The translations under genes were made by a program, and so were the position numbers. DNA of 64,000 nucleotides from Candidatus Heimdallarchaeum endolithica (GTDB lineage Archaea; Asgardarchaeota; Heimdallarchaeia; Heimdallarchaeales; Heimdallarchaeaceae), in contig CP084167.1 of NCBI GenBank assembly GCA_021513715.1, positions 2,848,001 through 2,912,000 of the forward strand, in the 5' to 3' direction. Position 1 is the stretch's first letter; each line of letters opens with the position of its first letter. Shown here piece after piece: positions 49,614 to 64,000 of this stretch. Under the pieces are notes generated by a model. The model was not told the DNA's origin, made no database searches, and saw only the letters and a list, made by a program, of their open reading frames with translations.

Positions 49614-51020
49614 TTAAATAAAATCTCCTGTTTCTATTTTCTGTGGGAGGTAAAAGTTTGTAATAAATTGTGGATCACGTGCGTTTAGTGCCTGAATTTC
49701 CGCTTTGTATCCTGTGTTTATTAGTATTTCAAGTTGTTCTTGCCACTTTGGTTTTCTTTTTACGAACTCTTCCTCTAACATTAGTTTAGATCGTCTTATG
49801 TCTTTTTGAGTCATTTTAATTAGTGCTTCTCTAGGTATATCAAATCCACTTTCAGGTTTTAGATCACTTGGAAGCAAACCTAACCATTTAATATTTGGAA
49901 CTGCAAGATGAGTAGATTCGAAACTAAGAGCCTTACTCCCAACACTATATACTCTCATGATTTCGAAACCGTAAGGGTCAGCATCCATAATAGCAAGAAT
50001 AGGTAGTTGTAAATCATCGTTTATTTTCTTTAAAAATTGCCTTGTTGCCATATCAGGCTGACCTTTAGCTGTAACTAAAATACTTGGGACATAATCGTAA
50101 AAATGATCTTCTGCTAACCTGTTAAAAATAGCATCTTTTTCTATAACTAAACAAAATTCAGCATCACTTTCCAAATCTTCAATATCATCTATATTTGGAG
50201 AAATAGCCTTTCCTGAACCAATAGCTCTGCAGTCAATGAGATCTCCCTTTTCCTTGAATTGCAACTTACCAACAACAATTCCTTTAGAAGAAGCACTAAC
50301 ATTTAATGATGTTCTAGTAGCTTGAATCATCGCTCCTAAATCTTCAATAAGAGAATCAGAAACTGCTTGTTTCTTAAATGCATTAACATTCATGTAAAAA
50401 ATATCTCTTTTTGTACTGTGGATATCTCGGGAGAGTATATCATGAAGAAGCCTCATTAGTATAGACATTTGTTCAATTGTACTTACAGAAGATAAACTTC
50501 TAAATTGGCGTTCTATCATCTGCCTTCCAATAAGTACTAGCTCTTGTTCTTCATCAAAGCCAATATTTCTTTTTCCTCTTGAAGGGATTTTAAAACCAGC
50601 TTCATCAGGATTGTTAAGTGCTTCATTCAAAAATAATAGCGCTGCTTCAACAATTTTGTTTTTAGCTTTTTCTGAAGACATTGTTTCTACATTAGTTACA
50701 CCATAAGGTAACTCGTAGTCTTGTAATAAAGTAAGTTCATTCCTAAGTTTTCTTATTTTATCAACTGAAACTTTTCTTTTGATTTCAATTCTCATTAATT
50801 CCTTTTTAAGAGAATAATTACTAAGGACTTTACCTTTATCTAAGGAATACCACTTCTTTCCACTTCTCAAAAAGAGTACAAAAGAACCTTTTCTAAGTTC
50901 AAATTCGTCCTGTAATATCTGGTATAATTCGTTTATTTGAATGCTATTATCAAAACTCATCTTTACTTCAGTTGAAGGCAAAATTGTTGCATTTTTTACT
51001 AAAAAATTATATCTTACCAT
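49614..51020 (-). CDS. top6A: DNA topoisomerase VI subunit A (Spo11 family) with N-terminal ubiquitin-like domain
   Basis: IPSR...N, STKRDIFY (catalytic Tyr), Q..SD..IED, Toprim IEKDA, KGQPD.ATR, DADPYG, KAEIQAL. Confidence 0.96.
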   Translation of the reverse strand: MVRYNFLVKNATILPSTEVKMSFDNSIQINELYQILQDEFELRKGSFVLFLRSGKKWYSLDKGKVLSNYSLKKELMRIEIKRKVSVDKIRKLRNELTLLQDYELPYGVTNVETMSSEKAKNKIVEAALLFLNEALNNPDEAGFKIPSRGKRNIGFDEEQELVLIGRQMIERQFRSLSSVSTIEQMSILMRLLHDILSRDIHSTKRDIFYMNVNAFKKQAVSDSLIEDLGAMIQATRTSLNVSASSKGIVVGKLQFKEKGDLIDCRAIGSGKAISPNIDDIEDLESDAEFCLVIEKDAIFNRLAEDHFYDYVPSILVTAKGQPDMATRQFLKKINDDLQLPILAIMDADPYGFEIMRVYSVGSKALSFESTHLAVPNIKWLGLLPSDLKPESGFDIPREALIKMTQKDIRRSKLMLEEEFVKRKPKWQEQLEILINTGYKAEIQALNARDPQFITNFYLPQKIETGDFI

Positions 51021-51030
51021 TTTTTACACC

Positions 51031-54000
51031 TTATTTTGTACTCCTTTTTTTACTTTCAATCTTTTTATCTGCAGTAATTTCATCTAAAGTTGTTTGTTTT
51101 GTCCTTTTTGCTGTTGTTTTCTTTGCTGTTGTACTTGGTTTTTTTGCTGTTGCTGTTGTTTTCTTTGTTGTTGTTTTCTTTGCTGTTGCTGTTGTTTTCT
51201 TTGTTGTTGTTTTCTTTGCTGTTGCTGTTGTTTTCTTTGTTGTTGTTTTCTTTGCTGTTGTTGTTTTCTTTGTTGTTGTTTTCTTTGCTGTTGTTGTTTT
51301 CTTTGCTGTTGTACTTGGTTTTTTCTTTGCTGTTGTACTTGGTTTTTTTGCTGTTGTTGTTTTCTTTGCTGCTGTTGTTTTCTTTGCTGTTGTACTTGGT
51401 TTTTTTGCTGTTGCTGTTGTTTTCTTTGCTGTTGTTGTTTTCTTTGTTGTTGTTTTCTTTGCTGTTGCTGTTGTTTTCTTTGCTGTTGTACTTGGTTTTT
51501 TTGCTGTTGCTGTTGTTTTCTTTGCTGTTGTACTTGGTTTTTTTGCTGTTGCTGTTGTTTTCTTTGTTGTTGTTTTCTTTGCTGTTGTTGTTTTCTTTGC
51601 TGTTGTACTTGTTTTGTTTTTTACAAAAGGAATTGATTGTTTAATTTTCTTTATATCATTATAAGTCATCTCTAGTTTTCCTTCGAGCTGTGATGTTGGA
51701 TAAACAATAAATTCTCCGATTGTATTAATTCCGAGTGATTTTAGCTTATTTCGTATTCCCTGCTTAACATCCAACTTTTCTATTGGTTCTTCTATTAGCT
51801 TTTGTAACTTTTGTACATTTTCGTTTTTGAAAGTGTCTTTTTTCTTCACCCGATTATCAGCAAAGATCAACTCTTCAAAAGAATATATTCCTATTTCCTT
51901 CAGTTTTAATATTGTCTCACTACTCATAAATGGTGTATTTTTTACTATTTGCGTTTTACCTTTTTTTGCTATTTTTAGAGATTGAGGAGTTAAAGTAGCA
52001 AAATAGTTTTTCAACTGTCTTTCTGTTATATTAGTAATTTCAGTTAGTTCATTAATTCTTGTATTAAAAACGTCCCAGAGAGAATACTTCTGTTTATGGT
52101 ATAATTTAAAAATACTGTTTGGCTTATCCTGCATTAGTGCATAGAATGAGTAAATTGGGTATGAAAGAAGTTCTTTTAATGTGGATATCTGTTTAATTGT
52201 TAACTCTGTTTGCTCTTTAATCCTTTTATCAGAAACTGATAAATGTATAATGTGGGAAAAGCCTCCGTTTTCTAAGATAGATTTTTCAGTATCCGAAAAT
52301 AGACCTAAATCTTTGATTCTGTAACTATTTAGTTCTAATTGTTCCTTCACTTTAGTCATATTAAGAGAATGAAGAAGTTCAGTAAATTCTGCATGTTGTT
52401 TTTCTGTAAATTTAATATGTAAATCATCTATATTTTGTAAAAAGAAAAGATCATAAATTTGTTCATAACCTCTTTTTGATAGTTGGGAAAGTATGTTCTT
52501 TTGACGTATAAATAATGCTAATGATGCTCTAAAACAAGAAAGAACGTCTTTTACTTTCATCGATAAATCGCTTATATTTTTTTCTTCAAACAAAGCAATT
52601 AGTTCACCTAATGAATTTATATCATTTTTATTTAGCTCGTTAATTATTTCTTTATCATTTACAAATTCTATAAGTTTAGAATTACTTTGAGCTGTTAATG
52701 AATCTAGATTATGGAATGGAATTTGAGATAAAAAGTTTTTAAGAACAGTTATGTCTGTGGATTTATTTAATAATAGTAAATCATAGACTGTTTTTATGTT
52801 ATTTTTTAGTAGAAGCTTAAATGTTTCCTTACTTTCAAAGACAAGTGGAAGAGAGTAAATTTTTTGTTCTATTCTTAAACGGAGTTTTTCTGTAATCTTC
52901 CATCTCTTTGAAGTTTTTGACTTTGAAACAAGATTAAAGATATAAGCCTCTTCTATGGAGAAAATGTGACCTTGACTTAAAACATCTAATTCAGTTTTAT
53001 CCAAAATTGTTTCTGGAATGGGGGTTAACTTCGATGCAAGAGTACGTAAAGTTTCTAATGATAGATTTCGAATCTGACGTATTAGTTTATTATCATCGAT
53101 TATCTGATTTAACTGGTATTTAGGTTTTAAAATTAAATCTCCAATTGTTAAGTTGCCATATTGTTTGTATTTCTTTTTATTCTCAAAACTTTCACCTACT
53201 AGCAAAATAATGTGCCTATTTAGAAATTGTAAGTATTCATTAAAGTGTAAAGTTATGTTCTCAGGAAAAGAGCTTGTAATATTGTCAAATTTCTTTTTAT
53301 CATATTTCTCCAAAAGAAGTAAAGATTCAAGGGTATGTTGGATTTTTTGTTCATCTTCTTCAGGGAGATTCAACTTTTCTTCGAGTTTGGTTGGTTTTGA
53401 GAAAATAAATGAGTAAATATCAAGTAGCCTTTTTGACACTTGAGAGTCTACTTTTAGAGAGTCATGATGCATATTAAAGAAAACTAATTGTTGAAAACTT
53501 AAGTTGGGAAGTTTTTCATCAAAATATCGTGAAGAGAGTTTTTGTAAAAGTTCAATTTTTGTTCTTAATGAAGGTGAAAGGTTGGAAAAAACATCGGTGT
53601 TTTCAAAAAGATCAAGATAATTTTTAATACTATTTTCTCTTAATTCAGCAATATCAAAATCTTGTAGAACAATATTTGTTTTTAGAGCAGGAGGATTGCT
53701 TATCCTAGAAATAGTAATTTTACTAAGAAAAGTGTCAACTTCACTATTCTTTGTGTCTATAATTTTTGCAAGATCTGATTTAGATAACAAAAGCATTTCT
53801 TGTATAGTACTTACTTTGGACAAAAGTTTCAACCAATTTTCAAGAGGAAGTTGTGGAAAAGAAATTAGATAAATAGACTTGTTTAATATTTTTAGAACAT
53901 TATTTCGTAATTTACTTCTCAGTCTACTGTGTTTCTTTGATAAATCATAAATCAAATCATCAACAACTGTATAATATTTCAATAATTCTTTCTTTGTTTC

Positions 54001-57000
54001 ACTATCAAATAGCATAATATTAGAAAGTTGAACTCTTTTATCTCTCAATTTTCTAATTGTGTTAAGATTCAAAGTTGAGAGAACGCGATTAACTTTCTCA
54101 AGTTGTTTTTCTGTTAAGAATGAAGAATATGAAATTGGCTTAATTAGTAAATCTTTCAGTGTTTCGATTTTATGTTCATTTAGTTTTTCTATTTCTTTTT
54201 CTGTAAAATCTGTTACTATAGAGATGGAACTGTTGAGAAGATTTAAAATTTCTAACCCTTTTTTAGTAAGAGTCTGTTTGTTCATGTACAATACAGAAAT
54301 AAGATCGATTATATTTGAGATATCTGGAATTTCAATGTTTTTACTGAATAAGTCTTTTGAATTAATAGTACCAAGAAAATCTCCTGTTTTTAATGTAAGA
54401 GATAATGTTTTCTTTTTATCTTTAATCAGATTACTAATTATTGTGCTATAACCACCTAAGTTGATTAGTTTATCGTTTTTGATAAGATCCTTGACAGTGA
54501 AAAGATTGTTGTCAAAATATTTTGTTTCAATTTCTTCAAATTCTAAGGAATTAATAGCACCTAAAAATAGGATTGAAGTATCTAATATTTGTTTTATTTT
54601 TGTTTTTATTTTATTTATCTTTTTTATATCGTAAAGCCAGCTGTATATTGAATTCTCTTCTAAATCTGAAAAACTATAGAACCCATAAGAAGACAATATG
54701 TCCTTTTCTTTTTCACTAAGAAATGGCAAATCTACTAAATGATTGGGTTTATCATGTTCAATTGCATTTTTTATGTTTTCTATCTTAATTGATGAACGAA
54801 GTTTTAATATTTGATCAAGTTTAATCCTTGATTTGTGTGCAAGTGTTTTATATGGGATAAGAAGTAAATCTGCAATAGTATATATTCCACCTTTTTTAAG
54901 ATTAGTTTCTAATTTCTCTTCTAATCCTAAGTATCGAATATTAGCTAGTAAATAGGGACTAATTTCTGCAAATATGTTTTTATCTTTTAGGTTAATATCT
55001 CCAAGTAATTCTTGATAAGACAAGTATCCTAGTTTCATTATTTTTTCTTCATATGAAGTTAAAGGAGGGCTAAATTGTTCAAGTTGTAGATTCTTTAATG
55101 TTGATAGACTTGATAAAATTTCATCAACCATTTCATCTTTCAGATTTTGAATAGAGGAAATAACATCAATAATATGAATTATATTTTTGCTATAGCAATA
55201 TTCTATTGTAGAGAGTGTTAGTATAGGTAGATTATTTATATTTCTACATAATTTCATTCTAATGTTTCTAATTTCTTCAAGATATGAATCAGGCAAATTT
55301 GAGAAAAATTCTTCAGGGAAGTAATATAAGTATTCAATAGAGAAAACTCCTAAATTATATAATTTTTGAACTAATGATTTATTTAACTTCAAATTAGCTA
55401 TATCAAGAGTAGAGAATTGAAGAGAAGATAGGTTTCTAATGAAGAGAGAATTGTTCTCTTTTATCATCTTATTTAATTCTGGAAGATAGCTTTCCCACAA
55501 ATAAATTGGAATATGAAGATAGTCATAATAGGTGTTTTTATTTTTCAATGAAGATTCAACATTTATTATTGAAATGCCAAATATTCGTTCAATTGTTTTT
55601 ATTGGTGTAAAGAGAACAGGAAAATTGACTATCAGTTTTTCTTTTTCTTCTTTGCTTATTTCTATTTGATTAACGTCTTGATAAAATAGCTGAATCAAAG
55701 AGTAAATTTCATTTTCATTAAGATGTTTAATCGTAGAAATTTCTGGTTTTTCAATTGTTTTTAGACTAGTACCTTCCTTTGCCTCACGCTTTTTGATGAG
55801 TGGGAGTTTACCCTCTCCTGTGATCTCTTCTTCAGTTAAAGATGGTAAAAGGTTTAAGTCAATACCATAGATTTTAAGTTCTGAAATAATATCTTGTTTG
55901 TTTATTTGTGATTTAATAGTTTTTATTTCTTTAAACTCTATTCCAAACAATTGGCTTAAGGAAGCTGAAGGAATGGTTAAGAATTCAAGAATTGTGTTAA
56001 TTTTGTTGTTCAAAAGAATAGAATTTTGCTGTAATGAGAGAGAATTTAAGAAGGAAGTTGGAGTTGAACCAAACAAAGAGAGAGTCTTTTTTATTGTAGC
56101 TAGATTTTTATCTTCTAAGCTGTAATCTTGTAAACAAAGAAGTTGATCTAAATAATCAATTTTAATCTTTTTTAAAGCTAGCTTCTGTTCCTTCGTCAAA
56201 AACTTTACATCATGTAGTTTGATGGCCCATTTAGGTATTTGAAAATCAGATAAGGAACTTACTAAATATTCTGCCATTTCTGTATTAATCTTTTCTGGGG
56301 GAAGAAGTAATAAATCAAGAATGAGTTTTTTATTTTCTTTTATCAATTTTCTTAAGAACTCGAGTTGTTCTATTTGAGAAAATTTGTCCAACCAAATAAT
56401 TGGATATTTAACCTTGTTTGTGAGGGATTCAGAGTTATTAAAGAGGATTTGAGAACCAATAACAAATGGTTGAGGAAGTAAATCGAGTAAATTAATAACG
56501 TCGAGAGAGGTCTTAATATTTAGTTTATCATTCTTGTTTGATAGAATATCCAAATGGTCTTTAGGGATCAGATTAACCAATTTTTCTTTGGAAAACTCTT
56601 TTACAAAACGGATAATCTCTGTTCTAGCATTTGAAGGAATTGATCTTTTTTCTTCAGAACTGAGTGTAAGAAGTTCAATGATGTTTTTTACTTCGTTTTT
56701 CCACAAATCAAGCTTGACATCTAAAGATATTTCAGGTATAGAAAAAATGTTTAGGCTTAAACCATAGATAAATTCTTCAAGTTTAGCGATGCTACTTGCT
56801 TTTTCTATTTTTTCACTTTCAGAGAATATAAGAAGATATTCTGGTACCAACCCAAAGATATCTTCAAATGATGCCTTTGAAAGGTTAAACTTAAAGTTTG
56901 TGAGTGCACTCATTAACTCTTTATCTTCCTCAAGAATTGGAATGCCTGAACTAAGACTTATATTTCCTTTTCTTTTCTCCTTTAGTTCTTCAGGGATAAA

Positions 57001-60000
57001 ATTAAGGATACTCTTAAGATCTTTTTCTCTAACTGTGAAAAGATCAATAACTCGTAGAATGCGATTCTTTGCAAGAGTACGTTTAATAAATCGCGAAAGG
57101 TTTGAAATTCTGAAAATAGAGGAGTTACAAAGAGATAGAAAAACGTCGATATTTTCTTCAAATTCATCTGAAAATGATTTTATTTGATAGCTTAAACTAT
57201 AAAGATCTTGAACTGTTTCTTTATTTAGTTTTTGTAAAGTCATAAGATTTCTCTTTGATAGTAAGGTTAGAGATTCAAGTTTTACTCCTTTTTCTGCTAC
57301 TTCTTTCTGGATTTTTTTAACTGAAACATTTTCCTTTATTTTTATAATTTCTGCCTCTGGTATGTCTAAGATTAATGATATTGTGGTGATATCTTCTGTT
57401 AAGAAAGTAAGTATATCTCCAACTCCAGAATATACAAGCTTGAGCATTTGCTCTAGTTCTAAATCTAAGAAGAATACTGATGAGAGATACAATTTTGCTT
57501 CTTTGAATACATTCATATTCACTAAATAGGGATATGATTTTCTGATTTCAGACATTCTAGAAATGAAGTCTTGGATTGAATAAATCCCAAGTTCATGTAA
57601 CTTTTCAACATATTCATCTGTAATAGAGGGACAATTTTCTAAAGGAATAGCAAAACTAAGTCTTTTCTCTTTTAGTTCGTCTAATGAAAGCAAGTCAAAT
57701 ATGTGGAATTCATTATAAATTGGATTGTTTAGGATTTGAGACAATTGTCCTTTTTCAAAAAGAGACAAATCAATTACAGAGTGAATGTCGTGTAGTTCTA
57801 ACTTCTTTATTTCTTCAAAAGACAAGAAACTGAGGAAAGTTATTGAACCAGATAATAGCTCTTTGAATTCCTTATATTTTTCTTTTTTTAGAATACTGGA
57901 AGCTCCCATTCTTACTCCTGCATAGTATAAAGTTTCTATATCTGATATCCCTATTTCTTGTAACTTAGAAATTTCTGATTCAGTGATAAGAGATGAGGGC
58001 ATAATGGGGTGAGATCTAGTTCTATGTAATTCGACGATTTCACCGTAGGAAAGATTTTCCTTTATTTCATTAATTCTTTTTTGTGTTTCATTGGATATTT
58101 CAGAAAGTTTCTTGGTAGGGGTAGAATAAAAGTCTATTAATGTTGTAATTGAAGATCGACTGAGAGGGAGAGCGAGATTAGCATCAAGGTTTAGAGACGA
58201 AATAGGGATAGATAAATCGCCTATAAGTTTATCTAAACTATTTTCCTCTCTTAATTTGTTTTTTATTTCTAAAAGAGGAGAGCTCTCTTCAAATTCAAGT
58301 TCAAACAAGATACCTAAAGTTACAGTAGAGAAATCGTTCCTTGTTTCTTCATTCAAAAAGTTAAGAAAAGGGGTTATTCCAAGAGGAAGTTCAAAGACTG
58401 AACGAATAAGTGTAATATTACATTTTTCAAAAGCTAGTTGTCTTTCAAACTCACTGAGAGTTTTAATCAAATCCGTACTGGATATCACATCAAGTAGTGA
58501 TGACTCTTCTATGTCATCTAAAATAGAAGAAAAGAAGTCTTTATTGTATGCTGTTGCAGAAATAAAATCAAAGTAATGATAAGCTCTCATGTCAATTAAT
58601 TTGGATGAATAATCTGAAACTGTCCTAAACAATGTTCTGTCTGTTAAATCGTTATCTAATATGAAAATTAAATGGTAGAGATGTGAAATTTTGTTTTGAT
58701 TGAAAATAGTTAAAGAATAATCTGATATTTCCTGAAAAATTCGTAAAGGAAGTGATAATATCTTCTTTAGTGTGAAAACTTTTCGCCAGATAGATGATTT
58801 TCTATCAATGAAAACTTCATCAGGGCAGTAGAAAAGCTCTTGAATAGATTGAAATCCTTCATAACTATAAATTGTTTCTCTACTTAATGTTCTTTGTTCA
58901 TTTTTATCAAAAAGTTTAGTTTCATATGCATAGATTGCCCTTGTTTCATATTCTTCTCTTATTCTTTGAGAAGTTAAAATGTCTATTATTTCTTTAATTT
59001 CTTTTGTTGAAATGTTTAAGATGCTACTGAGTTTAACAGATGAAGTAGAAACAAAATCAACAATTGTTAATATATCAGCTTTTCTAAGTTCTTCTGTTTG
59101 TGAAAAAGAAAGTTTTGGTAAGAAATATACCGGTAAACTGAAAAAGTAGAATATTTCTCCAAGATCTAGACTCCTTTTAATATTGTCAAATCGTTCATCA
59201 GGAACTCCTGTTCTCTCCATTAAGACTTTGGATGATGTAAGTAGAAAACCTAGTAAGGTGTTTATTTTATTTTTCTTTAGAAGAGTAATTATATCTGGAT
59301 CTAACATATCTGACAAATGCTTAAAGCGTAGATTTAACACGTTTTTTAAGTTCTGTATTATTTCCCAAGGAATTGTGTTAATTGCCCATTTCTCTTGTTG
59401 AGTAGAAAAGTATAGGTCTTCAATGGTAAAAATATTGTTTGTTTCTAGAGTTTCTACTATAGAGGGTCTAAAGATGTCGAGTTCAGAAATGTCAGTACCT
59501 GTTTCACTAATTCGAATGTTTTTCTTGTATTTTTTAGCTTCTTCTAGATCAATTTTCAAGATTGAAGCAATTTTCTCATCACTAACAAGGAAAAAGTCTA
59601 TAATTCGTCTAATCCCAGTTTTTCTTAAAGCATTCAGCTGTTCATGAGATAAACTTGTTATTTCAACTTCGTCTACTTCTTTTTCTTGTTTCGTTTCCTC
59701 GTTTAATATTTTCTTCTTTACTGTTTTTTCCCAAGTGACAAGAGTCAAGGGAGAACGCAATAGCTTTTTGAATTTCTCAATTACTCCCCATTTTATAATA
59801 GTTGCACCAAAAGTATAAGGGTGTGTCAAGTAAAAGAGTTTGTCAATAGAATTGTATCCTATAACAAGTAAGGACAGTATTTCTTCTGGTGAAAAACGTT
59901 CTGAATTTTCGAAATCAAAAGAAATTGTAGATACATATTTTCCACTAGCTACTTTTTCATAAAATGGTTGTCCATCTCTATTTAAATCAAAATTGTTTAT

Positions 60001-63000
60001 TAGTTCATCAAAACTCTTCTTTGAAAAATTAAGGAGTGTTCTTAATTCATCAAAACTGTAATTAAAAAATTGATGTAAGGAGTATATTTTTTTTGATGCT
60101 AAAACCTCATAATCTTTAAGTTTCAAACCTTTTATACGAGTGATTGGGAGTTGCAAAAACTGATAGAAGTCAATTATTTCTTGAGATAGCAAAACTTTTT
60201 CAGAAAAATCATCTGAAACTTTAAGATTTTTACTATTTATGTTATCGTAGAATTCTAGTAAGACTTTCCTGTCTTTATTTTTAGAAATTTCTGTTTCAAT
60301 GAATGCAGGTGTTAGTTGAAGAAAATCTCTTATTGTATTTACATCCTTCGTTTTAAGCTTAAGAATTGCATCATTCAAAGATTTTGCTTTAGCTTTTGTT
60401 GGAGCTAATTTTGTTAAAAAGAGTATATCTTCATTCATGAATTCTTGAAAGTTATTCATTTTTGATAGAAACTCAGAGATAGGTGGGAGTTCTTCTTCAA
60501 TATAAAAGTAAAACAACTCTTGTATTGTTGTTTGTTGTTCATTGAATTGTTTGACCAATCTCGGGAAGTGCTTTTTTATAATTTTTAAATTTCCTTTGTA
60601 CAATTGTTTGTTTTTCTTAACCTTGTCAGCAGATATGCTTTGTTTTAAACGAATGATCTCTTCCTCGTTAAGGTTTAGTATTAGAGAGAGTTCTTTATTA
60701 CTCCATATAAGAAACCTCCCTATACAATTTACTCCTACCTCATTTAATACGTTAATTTTCTCATTTAATTCAGGAAAAGCAAAAATTAAAGGTGTTCGTA
60801 ATAATAAATAATCTGAAATGTATTGATTCTTAGTTTGTTCATCTTCAAATCCGAAATCTTCTGGGTTAGAGTATATTAAATCCTCTACTGTATATATTTC
60901 ATACTTGTTTGCTTTGCTTTTCAAAGATAGAAAATTGGGAATGGGTGTACCTATTTTTTTCTTTATTCTTGCAATCTCACTTTTTAATAACCCCATTTCG
61001 CGTAATCTTTTTGAAGGAGTAATCAAGAATGATGTAGAAGTAAATATTTTATTTTCCAATAATCTTTCTTCTGCCTTTTCATTAATTACTTTGAGGTGAG
61101 ATAAATCAAGATCTCTATTTGTTTCATTGAGATGAGTAAGTATGCGAAGTTTCGATTCTTCCAATAAACTATCCACAAAAATAGCTAATTCCTTTTTCAT
61201 TAAAGTTCTTAACTTTGCATTTGCATATTGGGCTAGAGTATCTATGTTCACAGACTTAAAAATGTCTAATATGCTCTTTTTTGTGCTATCATCTATAGTA
61301 GATATTAGTTTTAGTTTGCTTAGAGGAATTGATTTTTCAGTGTTAGCCAGAATAGTAAAGAATCTTGTGTAAATTGAACGCTCTAATTCTTTGATCTCTA
61401 GAAGGTCCTTAGTTGGTTTTTCAAGAAAATTTTTTATTGTCTCTATCTTTCGTCTATGGAAAGCATTTTTAGTATAACCGTCTATCCAGTCAGGTTTCAT
61501 TTTTGTTATATTAGTTTTTAGAAATTCAGGAAACTTCTGTGAAATATGCGAAAATACTTTCTTAATATAATCAATCAAGATTTCTGTTAAATCATTTTCA
61601 TATTTATAAGAAAAGGGCTCATTAAACTTGAAAATAAAATCTTCTAGTCCTCTAAACTTATTTGAAAAGTTGGGATAGGTTGTTTTTACATAGTTGAAGT
61701 CAGGATATAGAAATTCTTCTTTTAATTCTGAATAAGCAGACATGGTATCCAAATTGAACTTAAATTCTTGAATAAAACTTGATAAATCGACTGTTTCTTC
61801 TGAGTTTTGAGATTTCGTAATTTCACTAATTAACTTAAATTTGTTTCCCTCTATTAAACGCTCTACTAATCCTTCAACAAAACGTAATTGTGTAGCTTCT
61901 GTTGCTAAATAGTGATAACTATTTTGAATCCATCTTTGATATAAAGCTTCATTGAAACTACTACTTGTTCCTCTTGCAAACCTTTTATCAATTGTTTTGT
62001 TTGTTAATGCTTTCAGAGGAAGTTCAGGGCTCAACTTGGACCTGTCTAATTCATAAATTGTCCTTTGCTTTATTCTTGAAACTTCTTTTTTTGAAAGATT
62101 TAGAATTGTGGACAATTCTGAAATTGGTATAGAGAGAAACTTTCCTATTGTTAAAATATTATTTTTAGCACAATTGTTTTTATATTTGTCTGGACACCAC
62201 ACATTAAGTTCAAAAATCGGTGTTCCTAAAGGAACAAAATTCCTAATTTTCTTTTTTGCTCCATGGGCAAGAGCTGCTGCAACCTTATATTTCTCTTTAT
62301 TTATATTTGTATAAACTATTTTTTCATTCTCCAATATTCTAGCGAGATTATCGATTACAACAGGGGCTGATCTTACAAAACGAGATAATCTTGCATGTTC
62401 TCTTTTTCTTCTTTTTGCTCTACTTAGGAAAGTTTTTAGTCTTCTACCAAGTTGTTGCAAAGCTAATCTTATCTCTTCTTCAATCTCAGGAACAGTTGAA
62501 ATATACTCTTTACTAGTTTCAGGAAAAGGAATTTTTGTACTTACTATTGACACAGCAATAGCTAGCGGGTCTGATTGTCTTGTAAGTCCATATTCGCTCC
62601 AATTTAAAGAAGAAACTACTTTTGTAATAACATCATTTCCCGCACCAAAAATTAGAGGAATTCTATTTGCATATCTGTAAATTATTTTATTATCAACTGA
62701 TGTGCTTCCTTTTTGTTGGGCATATTTAGATACTCCACCTCCATAACCTATTGCAGCTTCTACAATAAAAGGGTGGCCAGAGTAAGCTTTTGGAGGACGA
62801 GAAATTGCTTCAACAAATTCTGGTTCAAGTTCTTTTTCTAAACCTTTTCTTAGTCTTGCTGCTCCTAAAGGAGAAAGAGCATCACCTTGTGGAGCGTCGA
62901 ATCTAAAGATCCTATCCCTCTTTCTTTTTATTTCTTTAGCTTCTTGGTATGCTTTAATGAATCCTTCATGAACTATTCTTCTAATTTCTTTTGAAGTAAG

Positions 63001-63936
63001 TTCGCTTGGTTTTTTGTTAGGATCAATTTCCAAAATTTGAAAGAATTCCTCAGCAACTTCCTTTCTCACTCCCATGAAGTCTTTTGATAAAAATTCGATT
63101 AGATCATTTGCAGAGGTTGCAGCTATTTTTGCTTTGAATTGAGTAATATCACAACCAAATGGGTGTAGTTGAATTACTTTTGGAGGATCTGGCATGTCAT
63201 CTACTACTTTTTGAAAAACTAGTTTTTCACTTGTTCCTTCTTCATCTCCAGGTAGTACTACAGTGAAACTAGCATAAGGGGTAATTATTGCTAATTGCTT
63301 AAAGTATTCTTTAATGCTGTTTTTTGCTAGATTCCAAGCTCCAGTGAAAGTTATACTTATCTCAGTTCCACTAGTATGTAAATATCCTTGGTCATCAGGA
63401 TAATATTCATGCTGCTCCATGATGACTGGTTCATTTTTTTCTAAATTAATCATTAAATGAACTTCATTTGTCATTTCTTCCATGAAGTATCTGCTTTTTA
63501 TTCTTGCAGGAAGATCAACTGAAGACATAGAGTGAATTAAACACATCTTGGCTCCTAAACCAAATCTTCCTCTAGTTTGAATCACTCCATATTTTGTCCC
63601 TGTTAATACTCGACCAAAAAGGTTCGGAATCTCGTGACCTGGAACACCTACACCATTATCTCTGCATGTTAACTGAAGAAAATCAAGATGTTTTTCTAAT
63701 TGTTTATATCTAGTAATATCTAATAATTCATTAATTTCAGAACTAGTTAGTTTTCTTAATTCAACATATATTTCTGGATTTACACCTAGTTTTTCAGCTG
63801 CATCTAAACCATTTTCAACTAACTCTCTAACTGATGTGAAAACAGCTCGCATTGAATTACCAAAACCTGCAATAGCCTTATTTTCATTAAAAAAAGCAGC
63901 TGCACTCATTTTTCGTGTTTTATTTTCTTCAGTCAC
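51031..63936 (-). CDS. top6B: Giant DNA topoisomerase VI subunit B with tandem HhH array and H1-like tail (~4300 aa)
   Basis: N-terminal ~550 aa: ELVENGLDA, DNG.G, L.GTKY, RGRFGLG, GTEI, H2TH, RYANRIPL, W..YGL, STKIPF...SKE; single open frame of 12.9 kb; GTG at 63936 follows AGGAGTGA (track start 63945). Confidence 0.93.
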   Translation of the reverse strand: MTEENKTRKMSAAAFFNENKAIAGFGNSMRAVFTSVRELVENGLDAAEKLGVNPEIYVELRKLTSSEINELLDITRYKQLEKHLDFLQLTCRDNGVGVPGHEIPNLFGRVLTGTKYGVIQTRGRFGLGAKMCLIHSMSSVDLPARIKSRYFMEEMTNEVHLMINLEKNEPVIMEQHEYYPDDQGYLHTSGTEISITFTGAWNLAKNSIKEYFKQLAIITPYASFTVVLPGDEEGTSEKLVFQKVVDDMPDPPKVIQLHPFGCDITQFKAKIAATSANDLIEFLSKDFMGVRKEVAEEFFQILEIDPNKKPSELTSKEIRRIVHEGFIKAYQEAKEIKRKRDRIFRFDAPQGDALSPLGAARLRKGLEKELEPEFVEAISRPPKAYSGHPFIVEAAIGYGGGVSKYAQQKGSTSVDNKIIYRYANRIPLIFGAGNDVITKVVSSLNWSEYGLTRQSDPLAIAVSIVSTKIPFPETSKEYISTVPEIEEEIRLALQQLGRRLKTFLSRAKRRKREHARLSRFVRSAPVVIDNLARILENEKIVYTNINKEKYKVAAALAHGAKKKIRNFVPLGTPIFELNVWCPDKYKNNCAKNNILTIGKFLSIPISELSTILNLSKKEVSRIKQRTIYELDRSKLSPELPLKALTNKTIDKRFARGTSSSFNEALYQRWIQNSYHYLATEATQLRFVEGLVERLIEGNKFKLISEITKSQNSEETVDLSSFIQEFKFNLDTMSAYSELKEEFLYPDFNYVKTTYPNFSNKFRGLEDFIFKFNEPFSYKYENDLTEILIDYIKKVFSHISQKFPEFLKTNITKMKPDWIDGYTKNAFHRRKIETIKNFLEKPTKDLLEIKELERSIYTRFFTILANTEKSIPLSKLKLISTIDDSTKKSILDIFKSVNIDTLAQYANAKLRTLMKKELAIFVDSLLEESKLRILTHLNETNRDLDLSHLKVINEKAEERLLENKIFTSTSFLITPSKRLREMGLLKSEIARIKKKIGTPIPNFLSLKSKANKYEIYTVEDLIYSNPEDFGFEDEQTKNQYISDYLLLRTPLIFAFPELNEKINVLNEVGVNCIGRFLIWSNKELSLILNLNEEEIIRLKQSISADKVKKNKQLYKGNLKIIKKHFPRLVKQFNEQQTTIQELFYFYIEEELPPISEFLSKMNNFQEFMNEDILFLTKLAPTKAKAKSLNDAILKLKTKDVNTIRDFLQLTPAFIETEISKNKDRKVLLEFYDNINSKNLKVSDDFSEKVLLSQEIIDFYQFLQLPITRIKGLKLKDYEVLASKKIYSLHQFFNYSFDELRTLLNFSKKSFDELINNFDLNRDGQPFYEKVASGKYVSTISFDFENSERFSPEEILSLLVIGYNSIDKLFYLTHPYTFGATIIKWGVIEKFKKLLRSPLTLVTWEKTVKKKILNEETKQEKEVDEVEITSLSHEQLNALRKTGIRRIIDFFLVSDEKIASILKIDLEEAKKYKKNIRISETGTDISELDIFRPSIVETLETNNIFTIEDLYFSTQQEKWAINTIPWEIIQNLKNVLNLRFKHLSDMLDPDIITLLKKNKINTLLGFLLTSSKVLMERTGVPDERFDNIKRSLDLGEIFYFFSLPVYFLPKLSFSQTEELRKADILTIVDFVSTSSVKLSSILNISTKEIKEIIDILTSQRIREEYETRAIYAYETKLFDKNEQRTLSRETIYSYEGFQSIQELFYCPDEVFIDRKSSIWRKVFTLKKILSLPLRIFQEISDYSLTIFNQNKISHLYHLIFILDNDLTDRTLFRTVSDYSSKLIDMRAYHYFDFISATAYNKDFFSSILDDIEESSLLDVISSTDLIKTLSEFERQLAFEKCNITLIRSVFELPLGITPFLNFLNEETRNDFSTVTLGILFELEFEESSPLLEIKNKLREENSLDKLIGDLSIPISSLNLDANLALPLSRSSITTLIDFYSTPTKKLSEISNETQKRINEIKENLSYGEIVELHRTRSHPIMPSSLITESEISKLQEIGISDIETLYYAGVRMGASSILKKEKYKEFKELLSGSITFLSFLSFEEIKKLELHDIHSVIDLSLFEKGQLSQILNNPIYNEFHIFDLLSLDELKEKRLSFAIPLENCPSITDEYVEKLHELGIYSIQDFISRMSEIRKSYPYLVNMNVFKEAKLYLSSVFFLDLELEQMLKLVYSGVGDILTFLTEDITTISLILDIPEAEIIKIKENVSVKKIQKEVAEKGVKLESLTLLSKRNLMTLQKLNKETVQDLYSLSYQIKSFSDEFEENIDVFLSLCNSSIFRISNLSRFIKRTLAKNRILRVIDLFTVREKDLKSILNFIPEELKEKRKGNISLSSGIPILEEDKELMSALTNFKFNLSKASFEDIFGLVPEYLLIFSESEKIEKASSIAKLEEFIYGLSLNIFSIPEISLDVKLDLWKNEVKNIIELLTLSSEEKRSIPSNARTEIIRFVKEFSKEKLVNLIPKDHLDILSNKNDKLNIKTSLDVINLLDLLPQPFVIGSQILFNNSESLTNKVKYPIIWLDKFSQIEQLEFLRKLIKENKKLILDLLLLPPEKINTEMAEYLVSSLSDFQIPKWAIKLHDVKFLTKEQKLALKKIKIDYLDQLLCLQDYSLEDKNLATIKKTLSLFGSTPTSFLNSLSLQQNSILLNNKINTILEFLTIPSASLSQLFGIEFKEIKTIKSQINKQDIISELKIYGIDLNLLPSLTEEEITGEGKLPLIKKREAKEGTSLKTIEKPEISTIKHLNENEIYSLIQLFYQDVNQIEISKEEKEKLIVNFPVLFTPIKTIERIFGISIINVESSLKNKNTYYDYLHIPIYLWESYLPELNKMIKENNSLFIRNLSSLQFSTLDIANLKLNKSLVQKLYNLGVFSIEYLYYFPEEFFSNLPDSYLEEIRNIRMKLCRNINNLPILTLSTIEYCYSKNIIHIIDVISSIQNLKDEMVDEILSSLSTLKNLQLEQFSPPLTSYEEKIMKLGYLSYQELLGDINLKDKNIFAEISPYLLANIRYLGLEEKLETNLKKGGIYTIADLLLIPYKTLAHKSRIKLDQILKLRSSIKIENIKNAIEHDKPNHLVDLPFLSEKEKDILSSYGFYSFSDLEENSIYSWLYDIKKINKIKTKIKQILDTSILFLGAINSLEFEEIETKYFDNNLFTVKDLIKNDKLINLGGYSTIISNLIKDKKKTLSLTLKTGDFLGTINSKDLFSKNIEIPDISNIIDLISVLYMNKQTLTKKGLEILNLLNSSISIVTDFTEKEIEKLNEHKIETLKDLLIKPISYSSFLTEKQLEKVNRVLSTLNLNTIRKLRDKRVQLSNIMLFDSETKKELLKYYTVVDDLIYDLSKKHSRLRSKLRNNVLKILNKSIYLISFPQLPLENWLKLLSKVSTIQEMLLLSKSDLAKIIDTKNSEVDTFLSKITISRISNPPALKTNIVLQDFDIAELRENSIKNYLDLFENTDVFSNLSPSLRTKIELLQKLSSRYFDEKLPNLSFQQLVFFNMHHDSLKVDSQVSKRLLDIYSFIFSKPTKLEEKLNLPEEDEQKIQHTLESLLLLEKYDKKKFDNITSSFPENITLHFNEYLQFLNRHIILLVGESFENKKKYKQYGNLTIGDLILKPKYQLNQIIDDNKLIRQIRNLSLETLRTLASKLTPIPETILDKTELDVLSQGHIFSIEEAYIFNLVSKSKTSKRWKITEKLRLRIEQKIYSLPLVFESKETFKLLLKNNIKTVYDLLLLNKSTDITVLKNFLSQIPFHNLDSLTAQSNSKLIEFVNDKEIINELNKNDINSLGELIALFEEKNISDLSMKVKDVLSCFRASLALFIRQKNILSQLSKRGYEQIYDLFFLQNIDDLHIKFTEKQHAEFTELLHSLNMTKVKEQLELNSYRIKDLGLFSDTEKSILENGGFSHIIHLSVSDKRIKEQTELTIKQISTLKELLSYPIYSFYALMQDKPNSIFKLYHKQKYSLWDVFNTRINELTEITNITERQLKNYFATLTPQSLKIAKKGKTQIVKNTPFMSSETILKLKEIGIYSFEELIFADNRVKKKDTFKNENVQKLQKLIEEPIEKLDVKQGIRNKLKSLGINTIGEFIVYPTSQLEGKLEMTYNDIKKIKQSIPFVKNKTSTTAKKTTTAKKTTTKKTTATAKKPSTTAKKTTATAKKPSTTAKKTTATAKKTTTKKTTTAKKTTATAKKPSTTAKKTTAAKKTTTAKKPSTTAKKKPSTTAKKTTTAKKTTTKKTTTAKKTTTKKTTATAKKTTTKKTTATAKKTTTKKTTATAKKPSTTAKKTTAKRTKQTTLDEITADKKIESKKRSTK
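51105..51610 (-). repeat. Imperfect tandem repeat encoding TTAKK/TTTKK/PSTTAKK histone-H1-like tail
   Basis: 15-21 bp units such as TTTCTTTGCTGTTG repeated ~28 times on + strand. Confidence 0.95.
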
Positions 63937-64000
63937 AAAATTCACTCCTTATATTCCGAATTAATGTATACTCATACATTTTTTTTCCATTATTTAAAGA

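Follow-up and report, generated by a model that had tools for sequence, protein, structure and literature searches.

The archaeon Candidatus Heimdallarchaeum endolithica is a member of the Heimdall group, and no closer relatives of eukaryotes than this group are known. The B subunit of its sole DNA topoisomerase VI (Topo VI) is eight times as large as usual. Archaea have Topo VI as their decatenase, and Spo11, the enzyme that makes the meiotic breaks, descends from it. We analysed the top6B-top6A operon in a stretch of 64,000 nucleotides, here called the window (GenBank assembly GCA_021513715.1, contig CP084167.1, positions 2848001-2912000 of a closed single contig of 3.33 Mb). Positions are those of the window unless the genome is named, and Top6B residues are numbered along the full frame of 4304 amino acids (aa). 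Both catalytic cores are intact. Sequence and modelling show that the Top6B core is followed by a folded arm of ~3,550 aa built from tandem helix-hairpin-helix domains of the (HhH)2 type; a basic tail and a candidate clamp-docking motif stand at the end of the arm, and Top6A begins with an ubiquitin-like domain (UBL). These parts are inherited together. We tentatively regard the enzyme as a decatenase tethered to the replisome and to DNA.

Catalytic cores of Top6B and Top6A

Residues 7-550 of Top6B score above the equivalog cut-offs of two NCBIfam models (NF003218, 467.8 bits, cut-off 274; TIGR01052, 399 bits, cut-off 380.7), the transducer is recognised by Pfam (Topo-VIb_trans, E 4.6e-57), and aa 8-540 could be aligned with S. 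shibatae Top6B (2zbk_B, E 1.5e-87). In the N-box the general-base Glu (E41) and the Mg-binding Asn (N45) are both kept. The G1 box (DNGVGVP) and the glycine lid (G2, TRGRFGLGAK) are present, the anchoring Asn is found in RYANRIP, and the switch Lys in TSKEY is aligned with K427 of S. shibatae. Across 19 orthologues these motifs are invariant or near-invariant. With a Bergerat-fold ATP site, the transducer residues, an equivalog-level score and top6A located 10 bp downstream, the protein is a member of the Top6B family.

The transducer lacks a regular WKxY motif, an element with which Topo VI is described to sense DNA; Top6B reads WSEY at aa 449-452 (62590-62601). Among the families of our survey (f1 to f20, see below), this position is W[S/N][E/D]Y throughout the f1-f4 orthologues, and WKxY is retained in the 2,300-aa forms of f5 and f20. 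Judged from the alignment, WSEY is a variant in which Trp and Tyr are kept and the Lys alone is lost, and it gives no ground to exclude the protein from Top6B. The loss of the lysine coincides with the longest arms.

In Top6A, aa 111-468 could be aligned with the S. shibatae subunit (2zbk_A, E 8e-57), and Pfam detects TP6A_N (68.5 bits) and Toprim (200.6 bits). RDIFY with Tyr209, Glu294 and Asp346-x-Asp348 are invariant in 19 of 19 sequences, as expected for a protein of the Top6A/Spo11 family.

There are no other Topo VI genes in the closed genome, which holds one top6B and one top6A. Since this is the sole copy, every motif is kept and the ratio of non-synonymous to synonymous substitution rates (dN/dS) in the core is 0.016 against the sister species Ca. 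Heimdallarchaeum aukensis PM71 (CP084166.1), the locus looks like an intact and functional enzyme. A previous sequence-only reading of this DNA had claimed as much, namely that both subunits retain their catalytic motifs, are separated by only 10 bp and probably form a functional enzyme. The alignments bear this out, with WKxY read as WSEY, and the distance of 10 bp is exact.

The arm of Top6B

Behind the Top6B core, Pfam reports RAD51D_N (summed E 7.4e-21; 74.5 bits for the whole protein, cut-off 27.3) and signals of RNA_pol_A_CTD. An iterated hidden Markov model (HMM) of the repeating unit has a consensus of 53 aa, is of the type of the RAD51 N-terminal domain (RAD51-N) and the C-terminal domain of the RNA polymerase alpha subunit (alpha-CTD), and matches aa 565-4110 with 24 strong and ~16 weak units. 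A profile of 21 units compared with PDB sequences found the RNA polymerase alpha-CTD (E 0.0024) and the RAD51 N-domain (E 0.0028).

The fold was modelled with AlphaFold2 for a segment of 801 aa, using an alignment of 31 orthologue rows. The model is all helical, with a mean predicted local distance difference test score (pLDDT) of 86.8 and a predicted template modelling score (pTM) of 0.76, and consists of 13 contiguous units of ~60 aa with five helices each. Because the units are contiguous, the stretches missed by the HMM are degenerate units and not linkers. The number of ~57 units for the whole arm is an estimate extrapolated from the 13 units in 801 aa.

A single unit resembles the N-domain of RAD51C (Foldseek probability 0.99, VIA Z 7.7), the C-terminal domain of AF1548 (Z 7.3), RAD51D (Z 7.2, root mean square deviation (rmsd) 1.2 A over 53 aa) and the alpha-CTD (Z 5.9). 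Other structural matches were the HhH modules of polymerases beta and iota, NusA and SAM domains. The unit thus has the five-helix (HhH)2 fold of RAD51-N and alpha-CTD; the Z values are modest, and the assignment rests on the agreement between sequence and fold. With the whole 801-aa model, Foldseek found nothing at E 0.001 or better, the best row being a weak match to Topo V with DNA (8df9_B, E 0.028), so that the single-unit matches alone are informative here.

Within this genome the unit occurs inside Top6B only. The HhH array on Top6B noted in the sequence-only reading is present by Pfam, by the unit HMM and in the AlphaFold2 model. Scans with Pfam and NCBIfam detected neither a nuclease or lyase nor a repair domain in the arm. 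A recent internal duplication of the arm was ruled out, as a self-comparison of the protein by BLAST gave no off-diagonal match at E 1e-3. The DNA tandem repeats of top6B are confined to the tail.

The basic tail and the C-terminal motif

The tail is rich in Thr and Lys, and aa 4111-4304 carry a net charge of +59. Its DNA (51112-51620) is a tandem repeat of 18-21 bp with ~25 copies and a match of 71-74%. The tail comprises ~190 aa here compared to ~70 aa in the sister species, and its length probably varies within populations. It had been called H1-like. The basic tail is real, but no linker-histone family was matched in Pfam or NCBIfam, and the likeness to H1 is one of composition only. On the plus strand opposite the tail (50972-51664) lie open reading frames of 180-230 aa, which are by-products of the low-complexity repeat and not genes.

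The tail is followed by a short motif with the consensus K-Q-x-T-L-x-[DE]-[IMV], common to seven members of the family, with Q, T and L invariant. It resembles the PCNA-interacting protein (PIP) box, by which proteins dock on the sliding clamp PCNA. Elsewhere in Top6B there are no strict PIP boxes, and four relaxed matches fall within folded units. We modelled the last 60 residues of Top6B in complex with the PCNA of the same genome (L064:1063-1875:-), both given as alignments. The complex scored 0.78 compared to 0.02 for the best control, a mark reached by 58 of 80 solved complexes and by 2 of 110 mismatched pairs. The runs agreed in at least 38% of the contacts, and the pLDDT of the partner was at least 46. 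In the model, aa 4280-4291 lie on PCNA residues 43-50, 126-132, 234 and 250-257, i.e. in the PIP pocket formed by the interdomain connecting loop and the C-terminus.

The ubiquitin-like domain of Top6A

The AlphaFold2 model of Top6A has a pLDDT of 66.6 overall and of 77-90 over aa 1-85. These residues are predicted to be arranged as beta-beta-alpha-beta-beta-(alpha)-beta, the order of the ubiquitin fold. When the model was searched against 48,161 chains, more than 40 ubiquitin-like chains ranked right behind the Top6A/Spo11 chains (Z 9.8-12.6), with an rmsd of ~2 A over 75-82 residues, which is the whole domain. The matches include the tubulin cofactors TBCE (Z 12.6) and TBCB (11.9), NUB1, ISG15, Dsk2, Parkin, SUMO and ubiquitin. 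The UBL that had been noted on Top6A from the letters alone could thus be confirmed by predicted structure. Pfam detects no ubiquitin family in it at E 0.01 or better, a C-terminal GG is missing, and its chain continues into Top6A, indicating an integral domain and not a modifier. Of the two helices that join it to the core, the second (aa 116-136) corresponds in the alignment to the N-terminal region of Top6A from S. shibatae. A word-based homologue search with the N-terminal extension found 6 near relatives only. An extra N-terminal helix in Asgard Top6A has been published already (PMC9665070). The same genome also holds a free-standing gene of the ubiquitin family with 78 aa (genome 1707443-1707637; Pfam ubiquitin, E 9.4e-13).

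Distribution and conservation

We surveyed the open Top6B frames in 301 sampled genomes of the phylum by family. The frames have 4,140-4,305 aa in f1 and f2, about 3,470-3,590 aa in f3 and f4, 2,312-2,346 aa in f5, and 2,286-2,293 aa in f20, which belongs to a different class. Family f6 has a frame of 1,108-1,155 aa and a second copy of ~500 aa; in most remaining families Top6B has 500-680 aa. Most genomes of the family, assembled independently, have the frame of 4,140-4,305 aa without interruption. Top6B is 90% identical to that of the sister species. Other members of the family share 41-43% of its residues over ~4,100 aa; for f3 and f4 the identity is 34-35% and applies to the first 2,000-2,300 aa, and for the f5 form of 2,312 aa it is 28%, measured along 2,330 aa. 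As the arm is colinear with that of the relatives and has no self-similarity at BLAST level, it appears to be old, with units conserved by position.

Two frames proved unsuitable for this comparison. The seemingly intermediate Top6B of f7 (1,323-1,359 aa) is known from two frames that both run into contig ends, and neither their length nor their lack of a UBL match is informative. A frame of 629 aa in genome G034 is not a Top6B of normal size, as an arm frame of 2,416 aa follows in another frame; core and arm are in two frames there (C4:4500-14000), either by a frameshift or assembly error or by a genuine split.

A UBL profile run on frames of Top6A size was positive in 25 of 26 genomes of f1, 1/1 of f2, 9/9 of f3, 3/3 of f4, 18/19 of f5 and 2/2 of f20. 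It found none in the 9 genomes of f6 and none in the 200-odd other sampled Asgard genomes. The families with the UBL are exactly those in which Top6B reaches about 2,290 aa or more; genomes of relatives do not count independently, and this co-occurrence stands for one or two evolutionary events. In a tree of the Top6B core, the array-bearing proteins form one clan (100/100), of which f6 is the first to branch. The co-occurrence of the UBL on A with the array on B, suggested earlier as a check, thus holds, and the accessory parts are inherited together and not sporadic.

In f6 (genome G224), the Top6B of ~1,118 aa has ~6 HhH units and an internal stretch rich in K, P and A, and adjoins a Top6A of 413 aa without UBL. 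The second f6 Top6B of ~500 aa falls among the short copies that other Asgard families have.

Arm residues 560-1660 matched 37 clusters only among 1.84 billion representative proteins, and each long match has a Top6B core. No eukaryotic relatives of the arm were detected among these proteins. Compared with Ca. H. aukensis, dN/dS is 0.05-0.14 in the arm and 0.13 in the tail, indicating purifying selection there, too.

These data bear on the possibility that the locus has decayed, as a degenerate paralogue or a relic that is not expressed, or is an artefact of assembly. The tail, being a slippage-prone DNA tandem repeat, would fit such an origin. Against it stand the position as sole Topo VI in a closed genome, the long frames in independent assemblies, dN/dS values of 0.02-0.14 and motifs that are invariant across the 19 orthologues. 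We consider degeneration or artefact hardly credible.

Possible function

The reading that we prefer, with a confidence somewhat short of even, is that of a decatenase tethered to the replisome and to DNA by inherited parts. The organism's sole Topo VI would be an active A2B2 enzyme of type IIB. Gyrase would set supercoiling and Topo VI would act mainly as decatenase or unlinking enzyme. At replication forks the C-terminal motif may attach it to the sliding clamp, and the basic tail may grip DNA non-specifically. The arms could provide two far-reaching tethers per holoenzyme with many weak contact sites for DNA or proteins, and Topo VI would remain with the newly replicated DNA. In solved holoenzymes, the N-terminus of Top6A packs on the end of the Top6B transducer. 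The UBL is therefore expected at the root of the arm, where it may brace or regulate the junction.

Several observations weigh against this reading. The arm is net neutral (+2 over 3,560 aa, pI 7.6), the net charge behind the core is acidic in orthologues (-97 in G025, -72 in G030, -45 in G221), and the Gly of the hairpin is frequently N, K, S or D. DNA binding along the arm is thus not assured. The possible PIP box of the sequence-only reading exists as a motif that models into the PIP pocket of PCNA, but it lacks the aromatic pair of the consensus Q-x-x-[LIM]-x-x-[FY]-[FY]. It was seen in f1 only, other families ending differently, and a K/S/T/P/A tail of some kind is present in all members of the order but missing from the 2,312-aa forms. 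Docking on the clamp can therefore not be the reason for which the arm exists, and since the arm is neutral or acidic, too, the terminal devices leave the arm itself unexplained. Since complexes of PIP peptides with PCNA are common in the PDB, the result of the complex model may reflect likeness to solved complexes and not binding. The presumed place of the UBL at the arm root is deduced from structures of other species.

The charge of the arm is also important for a second explanation, a wrapping of DNA as in Topo V. Here the (HhH)2 chain would bind the duplex along its whole length and serve as a processivity or DNA-capture device. Both enzymes have the same architecture, a topoisomerase core with tandem (HhH)2 domains, and Topo V was the best though weak match of the whole arm model. 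In Topo V, DNA is wrapped by the (HhH)2 domains, which make the enzyme processive (PMC9489208), and HhH motifs contact phosphates via backbone atoms, which makes net charge less important. However, the neutral arm, the acidic arms of several orthologues and the many hairpins without Gly speak against wrapping. Furthermore, the RAD51-N/alpha-CTD subtype of the units mediates protein contacts as well, and 57 units go far beyond the need of one G or T segment. We regard wrapping as unlikely.

Alternatively, the arm might be a platform for docking proteins, or a strut, in a chromosome scaffold and, as the sequence-only reading had it, a hub for chromatin and repair, comparable to eukaryotic Topo II with its C-terminal domain in their role as scaffold. 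The apparently defined arrangement of the domains in the model (pTM 0.76) and the conservation of the units by position would suit a strut, the basic tail lies at the far end of the arm, and the UBL could recruit partners. In plants, Topo VI requires the extra partners BIN4 and RHL1 (PMC9665070). On the other hand, no partner, repair or chromatin-reader domain was found in Pfam and NCBIfam scans, the arm has no detectable eukaryotic homologues and the neighbouring genes are metabolic. Such a role appears rather improbable to us.

It seems quite improbable that, through arms, tails, clamp motif and UBL together, Topo VI serves the nucleoid as a structural element coupled to the replisome. The two arms of a holoenzyme might reach 100 nm or more if extended. 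If true, the closest known relatives of eukaryotes would have evolved an archaeal counterpart to eukaryotic Topo II in its role as chromosome scaffold.

Apart from the tethered decatenase that we prefer, the design is of interest in itself. Three kinds of targeting module were gained, i.e. the HhH arm, the basic tail with the clamp-docking motif and the ubiquitin-fold domain. Being co-inherited and under selection, they imply a mode of topoisomerase targeting or chromosome handling unseen in model archaea. They provide a concrete system for studying how replication and chromosome structure come to be linked to a type II topoisomerase. The arm looks like a lineage-specific elaboration and not like a precursor of parts of the Spo11 complex. 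As eukaryotes have no trace of it, the giant Topo VI probably does not explain the origin of the partners of Spo11.

Locus and genome context

The features of the locus are listed in Table 1. The order top6B-top6A is kept in every relative whose locus was fetched. In the spacer, GGTG is a Shine-Dalgarno or ribosome-binding-like element ahead of top6A. The real start of top6B is probably the second in-frame GTG (63936), because this codon is well spaced (8 nt) after AAGGAG (63945-63950); it was not used for the residue numbers given here.

Table 1. Features of the top6B-top6A locus of Ca. H. endolithica (positions in the window)
Feature	Position	Strand	Description
TATA-like box TTTAAATA	63991-63998		upstream of top6B
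top6B	51031-63945	minus	4304-aa open frame; NCBIfam PRK04184, E 4e-140
Top6B core, aa 1-550	62296-63945	minus	GHKL ATPase, H2TH, transducer
Arm, aa 565-4110	51616-62253	minus	head-to-tail (HhH)2-type domains, estimated ~57 x ~60 aa
Modelled arm segment, aa 1420-2220	57286-59688	minus	AlphaFold2 model, 801 aa
Basic low-complexity tail, aa 4111-4279	51109-51615	minus	T 43%, K 32%, A 17%
C-terminal motif KRTKQTTLDEIT, aa 4280-4291	51073-51108	minus	PIP-box-like, includes KQTTLDEI; predicted PCNA docking
top6B-top6A spacer	51021-51030	minus	10 bp between top6B stop and top6A ATG; holds GGTG
top6A	49614-51020	minus	468 aa
UBL (beta-grasp), Top6A aa 1-85	50766-51020	minus	predicted by AlphaFold2 and structural search
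Top6A linker helices, aa 86-136	50613-50765	minus	helices 86-97 and 116-136 join UBL to core
Top6A catalytic part	49635-50477	minus	5Y-CAP aa 182-241 (Tyr209), Toprim aa 289-462 (Glu294, Asp346, Asp348)

The genes beside the operon are metabolic; one, which is convergent, encodes a glutamate dehydrogenase and the other an MBL-fold hydrolase. No RNA elements came up when the window was scanned with Rfam and for tRNAs. A gene for GyrA is present in the same genome (1,270-aa open frame, genome 2465029-2467680), which fits the link between gyrase and C-terminal extensions of Top6B published previously (PMC9348778). The Pfam match of this GyrA is in two pieces (model positions 1-41 and 37-431) with ~430 aa between them; the interruption looks like an intein or another large insertion.

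Comparison with known systems

The genus Heimdallarchaeum was described in PMC8813620. The genome paper presents proteins of >3,000 aa in an extended-data figure, and a topoisomerase is absent from its text. Papers on Asgard Topo VI treat the relationship of the cores and describe an additional helix as well as a C-terminal extension called "globular" (PMC12680538, PMC9665070, PMC11302465, PMC9348778), and the Asgard Top6A and Top6B cores have been tied to eukaryotic Top6A/Spo11 already (PMC12680538, PMC9665070). In the part of the literature that we searched, no mention of the HhH array, the giant size or the UBL of Topo VI was found; the design is apparently undescribed.

Compared with canonical archaeal Topo VI (S. 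shibatae 2zbk, M. mazei 2q2e, M. jannaschii 1d3y), the cores are homologous, and the motifs and the B-A operon are alike. However, Top6B has 4304 aa here and 530-621 aa there; arm, basic tail and PIP-like motif are additions, the lysine of WKxY is lost, and Top6A has ~100 additional N-terminal residues including the UBL. In place of the arm, Top6B of M. mazei has an Ig-like C-terminal domain of ~100 aa.

The accessory parts have counterparts in other proteins, too. The N-domain of RAD51/RadA and the RNA polymerase alpha-CTD share unit fold and sequence profile with the arm units, but these are single domains on other enzymes, whereas ~57 are predicted in tandem here. Integral UBLs such as those of tubulin cofactors B and E, Dsk2, Parkin and USP11 have the same beta-grasp fold and are likewise built-in terminal domains; identity of the Top6A domain to them is just 9-16%, and here it is fused to a topoisomerase subunit. 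In common with PIP boxes, the C-terminal motif has Q-x-x-L after a basic disordered stretch, but I, M or V and a variable residue replace the two aromatics. The C-terminal domain of eukaryotic Topo II is a basic, disordered targeting region; it is similar to the tail of Top6B without being homologous to it.

The nearest parallel in architecture is Topo V of Methanopyrus kandleri (type IC), which likewise consists of a topoisomerase core and a chain of tandem (HhH)2 domains (PMC9489208). Its core is unrelated to the type IIB core described here, and it has 12 (HhH)2 domains compared to the ~57 estimated for Top6B. Apurinic/apyrimidinic lyase sites lie within the (HhH)2 domains of Topo V, whereas none were detected in the arm. 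Top6B is not a member of the Topo V family, and the likeness between the two is one of plan and not of descent. To our knowledge, Topo V is the only other topoisomerase in which a core is joined to tandem (HhH)2 domains.

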